A stretch of DNA of 64,000 nucleotides from a virus (Duplodnaviria > Heunggongvirae > Uroviricota > Caudoviricetes), in IMG/VR virus record IMGVR_UViG_2861074659_000002; one strand, written 5' to 3'. Numbering within the stretch: position 1 is the stretch's first letter; each line of letters begins with the position of its first letter. Positions 29,818 to 30,560 of this stretch are shown here, in pieces. The notes below the pieces were generated by a model, which worked only from the letters and a program-made list of their open reading frames with translations, had not been told where the DNA came from and made no database searches. The translations under genes were made by a program, and so were the position numbers.

Positions 29818-30560
29818 ATGACACAGACAGAATCAGCGATTCTGGCGCACGCCCGGCGATGTGCGCCAGCGGAGTCGTGCGGCTTCGTGGTAAGCACGCC
29901 GGAGGGGGAAAGATATTTCCCCTGCGTGAATATCTCCGGTGAGCCGGAGGCGTATTTCCGTATGTCGCCGGAAGACTGGCTGCAGGCAGAAATGCAGGGT
30001 GAGATTGTGGCGCTGGTCCACAGCCACCCCGGTGGTCTGCCCTGGCTGAGTGAGGCCGACCGGCGGCTGCAGGTGCAGAGTGATTTGCCGTGGTGGCTGG
30101 TCTGCCGGGGGCGATTCATAAGTTCCGCTGTGTGCCGCATCTCACCGGGCGGCGCTTTGAGCACGGTGTGACGGACTGTTACACACTGTTCCGGGATGCT
30201 TATCATCTGGCGGGGATTGAGATGCCGGACTTTCATCGTGAGGATGACTGGTGGCGTAACGGCCAGAATCTCTATCTGGATAATCTGGAGGCGACGGGGC
30301 TGTATCAGGTGCCGTTGTCAGCGGCACAGCCGGGCGATGTGCTGCTGTGCTGTTTTGGTTCATCAGTGCCGAATCACGCCGCAATTTACTGCGGCGACGG
30401 CGAGCTGCTGCACCATATTCCTGAACAACTGAGCAAACGAGAGAGGTACACCGACAAATGGCAGCGACGCACACACTCCCTCTGGCGTCACCGGGCATGG
30501 CGCGCATCTGCCTTTACGGGGATTTACAACGATTTGGTCGCCGCATCGACCTTCGTGTGA
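29818..30560 (+). pseudogene. K: Tail tip assembly protein K (JAMM/MPN plus NlpC/P60-like), frameshifted near 30106; annotated lambda start corresponds to Met at 29962 but ORF is open from 29818
   Basis: N-part ...HSHPGGLPWLSEADRRLQVQSDLPWWLVCRG ends in stop at 30171; C-part ...IHKFRCVPHLTGRRFEHGVTDCYTLF... continues in another frame to 30560. Confidence 0.75.

Follow-up and report, generated by a model that had tools for sequence, protein, structure and literature searches.

Does the interrupted gene K at this locus reflect the biology of the phage or the way in which its sequence was obtained, and where does the gene begin? In the window (the whole 64,000-nucleotide stretch analysed here, whose numbering is used throughout), the initial annotation had placed the JAMM/MPN-like part of the tail-tip gene K and the part downstream of it in different reading frames, and both the open reading frame table and Pfam confirm this. 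The table lists a 117-amino acid ORF at 29818..30171 (+), reading MTQTESAIL...HSHPGGLPWLSEAD...WWLVCRG and ending in 19 out-of-frame residues (RFISSAVCRISPGGALSTV*), and a 156-amino acid ORF at 30090..30560 (+), which contains IHKFRCVPHLTGRRFEHGVTDCYTLF and lies in another frame. In Pfam, the first matched Prok-JAB (PF14464; E 2.6e-14, 53.5 bits with a cut-off of 25) and the second NLPC_P60 (PF00877; E 1.7e-13). As written, the DNA has no single JAB plus NlpC/P60 ORF of about 240-250 amino acids, the split falling at codon 99. When one missing A was put back, the result was a 247-amino acid ORF identical to lambda K; the locus is an ordinary phage lambda gene K. Its gene order, L-K-I-J, is also that of seven diverged phages, with one exception: in Vibrio phage pVa-3, K is not followed by I. 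The features are collected in Table 1.

Table 1. Coordinates of the K locus and of the main parts of the window
Feature	Position	Strand	Remarks
blaTEM-1	1..306		joined via GAATTC-GGATCC linker to lambda int at 27971
Window parts	1-312, 313-15687, 15688-43408, 43408-64000		
Gene L (tail tip)	29114..29812	+	TAA stop, 5-nt spacer, then K start
Gene K, lambda tail-tip assembly, full extent	29818..30560	+	743 nt here; intact gene 744 nt / 247 aa
N-terminal 48 codons of K, absent in the legacy 199-aa model	29818..29961	+	include the JAMM glutamate E19, codon 29872-29874
G without counterpart in J02459/NC_001416 (lambda 14266/7)	29952	+	from alignment; also in re-sequenced lambdas
Internal ATG (Met49), legacy K start (J02459 14276)	29962..29964	+	exactly 48 codons downstream of ATG 29818
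JAMM zinc-site motif H68-S-H70-x7-S78-x2-D81	30019..30060	+	five residues invariant in alignment
Frameshift site: G5 run then CG	30107..30113	+	A missing at 30111/30112; codon 99, inter-domain linker
NlpC/P60 (C40 peptidase) part of K, -1 frame	30114..30560	+	putative catalytic Cys121, codon 30177-30179
Gene I (ubiquitin-like tail assembly protein)	30458..31129	+	overlaps K 3' end
Gene J	from 31190		after I; order L-K-I-J

The lesion itself is small. The window reads CCGGGGG-CGATTC where lambda reads CCGGGGGACGATTC, and the absent A (lambda 14426) is present in all four lambda records that we aligned; otherwise, K of the window is 100% identical to that of lambda. A frameshift at the junction of the JAB and NlpC/P60 domains had been proposed from the letters alone, with the two frames meeting near 30106; the alignment reduces it to one missing base and places it only a few bases away from that point. 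Codon 99 falls in a variable, indel-rich linker between the two domains. The surrounding 1 kb had no gap-free match among phage records or complete E. coli genomes.

The same kind of break nevertheless occurs elsewhere. Among complete E. coli genomes, the exact 60-mer with the A deleted was present in 6 of 4,061 locus-carrying records (7,392 places), and the alternative loss of a G, which leads to the same 117-amino acid type of product, in 5 of 4,059 records, so that equivalent split alleles account for approximately 0.15% of E. coli K loci. Each of the six A-deletion records is annotated as a 'frameshifted' pseudogene, and three of them also carry a frameshifted M, L, H, I or J nearby. Loss of the same A or the equivalent G was also seen in one NCBI draft assembly, one contig from a public read run and two IMG/VR contigs. 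In a collection of 15 billion proteins, the exact 117-amino acid product was encoded by one NCBI contig and one read-run contig, both diverged. The K genes of the carriers differ by up to 7% (3-7% for most pairs) and K of the window equals lambda K apart from the gap, so a single inherited frameshifted lineage is excluded; the split alleles would, on these comparisons, be the products of recurrence or of short-patch spread. Frameshifted copies of K are ordinary and are routinely flagged as pseudogenes. In all, at least 15 other public sequences, with diverse K genes, show the GGGGGA tract of the linker shortened by its A or by one G. One version of the lesion is in SCU-306 and the other in SCU-301, two similarly named strains. 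This recurrent loss is either a miscall or a mutational hotspot.

A shift of frame in this operon need not be an accident: lambda G/GT uses a programmed -1 frameshift at a conserved slippery heptamer, an arrangement conserved across long-tailed phages. The shift in K resembles it in lying in the same tail operon and in involving two overlapping frames, but it has no heptamer, and more than 99.8% of homologous loci are continuous, without the shift. Direct reading of the zero-frame codons, TGC CGG GGG CGA, gives no in-frame X XXY YYZ heptamer, and the only conceivable slip would be on G GGG in the P site. The 89 nucleotides downstream folded at -30.9 kcal/mol, and shuffled sequences at -27.9 on average (z = -0.90). 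A programmed frameshift was thus rejected, since there is neither a heptamer nor a downstream structure, the arrangement occurs in approximately 0.15% of loci, and six of six A-deletion records are pseudogenes. What the window carries is a private single-base deletion.

A weaker version of this idea is that the GGGGGA site is functional or at least tolerated, either through a -1 slip on G GGG before CGA, a rare codon in E. coli, that restores full-length K, or through the two domains acting separately. Two different DNA lesions, of the A and of a G, do strike the same codon on diverse K backgrounds, but the carriers make up only about 11 of approximately 4,060 E. coli records, and the A-deletion copies are the pseudogenes described above, half of them with frameshifted neighbours. 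Similarly, the break lies exactly inside the inter-domain linker, whereas 1,720 of 1,760 phage homologues are in one continuous frame and the exact 117-amino acid product is confined to two contigs among 15 billion proteins. The product of a -1 slip would read ...RG(A/T)IHK... across the site; nothing supports such a slip, and the missing heptamer and downstream structure argue against it. Separate action of the domains would agree with NlpC/P60-only versions of TAPK reported in prophages (PMC1779556), and small amounts of product might suffice for a protein that is undetected in virions (PMC10721106); however, the only starts that we could read ahead of the catalytic Cys are the GTGs at 30090 and 30093, which have no obvious Shine-Dalgarno sequence. 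We regard a functional or tolerated site as extremely improbable. That the GGGGGA tract is a genuine recurrent -1 hotspot whose split allele is tolerated through low-level slippage or separate domains also appears very improbable.

How the private deletion arose has to be judged from the DNA around it. BLAST against J02459 resolved the window into two different genomes of the lambda imm21 nin5 type arranged in tandem, i.e. an engineered double lysogen. The first copy (A) runs through lambda 27971..34381 and then has a block of phage-21 immunity DNA of 1.86 kb (99.8% to DE3, phage 21 and lambda imm21); next comes lambda 38591..40501, which a nin5-type deletion separates from lambda 43298..48502. 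An unbroken lambda 1..34381 follows and passes a single attP core at 43408. After this core, which is intact, the second copy (B) has an intact int and a divergent exo-bet-gam segment. This layout assigns K to the vector prophage that carries bla. In the second copy, the exo-bet-gam-kil-cIII-ea10 segment (46700-50062) has approximately 60 substituted positions relative to lambda 31238-34025, and its counterpart in the first copy (3358-6720) is nearly identical to lambda; by its sequence, the copy B segment appears to be a mosaic recombination region from another lambdoid phage.

Single-base lesions are frequent elsewhere in the tandem. Compared with lambda imm21, the immunity-to-replication region has 11 single-base indels in the first copy and 14 in the second. 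Two of these are insertions and the other 23 deletions, which take a base out of runs of at least two identical bases. The indels cluster at window positions 8104-9053 and 50908-52392 (relative to lambda imm21 and J02459). As written, both copies of O (from 8682 onwards in the first) have a stop as codon 20, and both copies of cII are broken; cro is broken in the first copy and the cI21 repressor in the second. Phages with O, cII and cro or the repressor broken could not have been propagated to build the lysogen, and a consensus error is therefore the simplest reading of these lesions. The source assembly would thus contain many single-base run contractions in indispensable phage genes, of which the deletion in K would be one, and we consider it most likely, on the evidence of the sequence, that the K deletion is a consensus error of that assembly. 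Two observations argue against an artefact. The missing A lies beside the G5 run and not inside it, so this is no textbook homopolymer error, and the density of indels is uneven, with approximately 1 per 100 nucleotides in cII-O against 3 in the 34 kb of late genes. Additionally, K genes that are up to 7% apart have this lesion or its equivalent, and at least some of these occurrences may be real mutations at a hotspot.

Two other late genes of the K-bearing copy have private 1-bp deletions when compared with J02459. One lies in C/Nu3 at window 21195 (lambda 5509), in codon 364 of C and within a GGATCC, with loss of the BamHI site at 5505; the other lies in J at window 34223 (lambda 18538), in codon 1012, and the J ORF stops early after 1023 amino acids. 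Of the phage records covering these sites (77 and 22, respectively), none has the deletion. Inheritance of the two deletions from the vector lineage (DE3, lambda imm21) is excluded, since no phage record has either of them. The J deletion is flanked by two substitutions, C2999T (A1000V) at window 34188 and G3229T (V1077L) at 34417. Both lie in the C-terminal receptor-binding part of J, a site of known host-range mutations, and their presence fits a J that was once functional.

Alternatively, the deletion could be a genuine inactivating mutation. The prophage with K would then be a defective laboratory vector, devoid of tail (K, J) and head (C/Nu3) functions and retained in the chromosome beside a second copy. 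In an engineered tandem lysogen, with its bla-EcoRI-BamHI junction in int, the late genes would be free of selection; however, three independent 1-bp deletions in 27 kb of late genes would, at known E. coli mutation rates, imply an implausible number of generations. Apart from the deletions, these 27 kb have just five substitutions relative to lambda, none of them upstream of J. Equivalent K lesions are present in other assemblies, one of them built from a public read run, and three RefSeq genomes have no frameshifted gene other than K in its 5-kb neighbourhood, but a true mutational origin hardly explains in biological terms why O and cII are broken by run contractions in both copies. A real mutation in K is, in our view, unlikely, and would be less likely than the consensus error that we favour. 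The two make different predictions for the source strain: a K site reading GGGGGACG would favour an artefact, and GGGGGCG at full frequency a real mutation. Given the run-contraction errors in essential genes, a frameshift of a single base in this window should not be taken for a biological feature, and the case of K carries little weight for biology and somewhat more for annotation.

That weight concerns the start of the gene. It had been suggested that K begins about 48 codons upstream of the usually annotated start, in a frame open from 29818, 6 bp after L. The upstream frame does begin just past the L stop, which ends at 29812 and is separated from it by the 5-nt spacer, and re-sequenced lambdas and RefSeq lysogens have the same longer gene. 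K is a single 744-nucleotide CDS of 247 amino acids in PV340536, ST18 and BL21(DE3), starting 6 nucleotides past the end of the L CDS; the protein of ST18 and BL21(DE3) has the RefSeq identifier WP_000194780.1 ('C40 family peptidase'). The source of the shorter model became apparent on aligning the window, J02459 and three re-sequenced lambdas. J02459 reads GGAGGC-TATTTCC, with a G missing at 14266/7 that is common to the window (29952), PV340536, lambda imm21 and DE3, and its translation from 14133 departs from the K frame after ...GEPEA. The absence of this G takes the upstream codons out of the frame of the ATG at 14276, and K was therefore annotated as 199 amino acids, as it still is in J02459 and NC_001416.

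Evidence for the longer gene also came from outside the annotation. When the repaired K protein was compared with phage DNA by tblastn, a search that addresses the N-terminus independently of annotated starts, it matched 1,760 records, of which 1,720 covered at least 80% of it in one piece. Among the alignments listed, the match began within residues 1-8 of the query, or in a few cases at residue 12 or 19, and this held even at 27-40% identity. Additionally, in seven of seven diverged phages (of Erwinia, Stenotrophomonas, Burkholderia, Rhizobium, Vibrio, Escherichia and Klebsiella), K is a single CDS of 239-250 amino acids that adjoins L, starting anywhere from a 1-base overlap with the end of L to 50 nucleotides after it. 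The proposal that the N-terminal segment is conserved thus holds across approximately 1,700 phage records and in an alignment of eight proteins, and comparison with lambda K and its homologues, which had been suggested as a check, shows that the homologues do not begin at the internal Met. As judged from these alignments, the upstream 48 codons are the real beginning of K. Translation would start at ATG 29818, 5 nucleotides past the L stop, and is probably coupled to L, as suggested by the tight spacing of L stop and K start conserved across diverged phages.

The 199-amino acid K is an annotation relic of the 1982 reference, which lacks the G at 14266/7. The 247-amino acid form is already known, being the standard RefSeq/PGAP model for lambda lysogens, although our literature search found no explicit statement of the 14266 G correction or of a 247-amino acid gpK. 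BLAST gave two single-base differences from J02459: a G is absent at lambda 138 (window 15825) in both copies, and there is an extra G at 14266/7. The latter is common to the re-sequenced lambdas and is an error in the 1982 reference; the former presumably matches a correction to the lambda sequence. Both differences agree with supplier notes for lambda cI857 Sam7 DNA, which list '138 G deleted, 14266 G inserted'. In J02459 and NC_001416, the reference records for lambda, K still lacks its catalytic glutamate and over half of its JAMM domain. At least one structural paper on JAMM proteins cited the truncated entry (PMC300881). For modelling, expressing or mutating gpK, the 247-amino acid form is the one to use.

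The effect of the longer start on the domain is considerable. In the repaired 247-residue K, Prok-JAB covers residues 3-104 (profile positions 3-112 of 114) with 52.3 bits; in the 199-residue K, only positions 63-112 are matched with 23.3 bits, below the 25-bit cut-off. The upstream 48 residues therefore make up more than half of the domain, and the 199-residue model lacks E19 and profile positions 3-62. The initial annotation was right in expecting this segment to complete an MPN domain, and the HMM search that it had suggested put the domain boundary at residue 3, within the segment. NLPC_P60 covers residues 111-224 of the repaired protein (profile positions 1-105 of 105), and scores 49-51 bits over the split ORF and repaired K (cut-off 23 bits). 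In the eight-protein alignment (28-48% identity), E19, G22, H68, S69, H70, S78 and D81 are invariant, as are C121, H187, H199 and H200 of the NlpC/P60 domain, for which we propose catalytic roles from knowledge of the family. The JAMM motif has been defined as E-Xn-H-S/T-H-X7-S-X-X-D (PMC300881), and K has it complete, as E19, H68-S-H70, S78 and D81. The solved JAB structure 2kks aligns with K residues 7-105, the Glu of 2kks 'PNEACG' corresponding to E19 in K 'PAESCG'.

The product of intact K would thus be a 247-residue two-domain tail-tip assembly factor, with an N-terminal JAMM/MPN domain (E19, H68-S-H70, S78, D81) and a predicted C-terminal NlpC/P60 cysteine peptidase domain (C121, H187, H199/H200). 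Compared with lambda gpK (WP_000194780.1, PV340536), K of the window has the same nucleotides bar one A, the same start and the same L-K-I-J order, but its frame is broken at codon 99 and there is no single 247-amino acid ORF. After repair it also shares its C-terminal 199 residues with legacy K (AAA96551 / NP_040598, 199 aa; J02459 14276..14875), which in contrast begins at Met49, lacks E19 and falls below the Pfam cut-off. AfJAMM, Rpn11 and Csn5, JAMM/MPN+ metalloisopeptidases (PMC300881), share with K the complete motif, which in K has a spacing of 49 residues from the Glu to the first His; unlike them, gpK is fused to a second peptidase domain, and its activity is a prediction.

gpK is required for tail assembly, but was neither detected in virions by mass spectrometry nor resolved by cryo-EM (PMC10721106, PMC12617516). 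Iyer et al. described TAPK as JAB plus NlpC/P60, encoded beside the ubiquitin-like TAPI, and proposed that TAPK peptidases process the adjacent Ub-like protein (PMC1779556). K of the window shares with TAPK the two-domain architecture, the neighbours and the catalytic residues of both domains, and does not differ from it after repair; as written, it resembles the 'degenerate' prophage versions mentioned in the same work. By this comparative-genomics proposal, the peptidase domains of gpK would act on the ubiquitin-like protein I.

Finally, we noted that the gene for this neighbour is also annotated with different starts. RefSeq lysogens begin I at GTG 30557, giving 190 amino acids that match positions 26-83 of the 83-position Lambda_tail_I profile with 68.8 bits. 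The classical 223-amino acid ORF matches positions 2-83, from Met14, with 100 bits. It is thus probable that the RefSeq model of I cuts off part of the ubiquitin-like domain and that the gene really begins at ATG 30458 or 30497.
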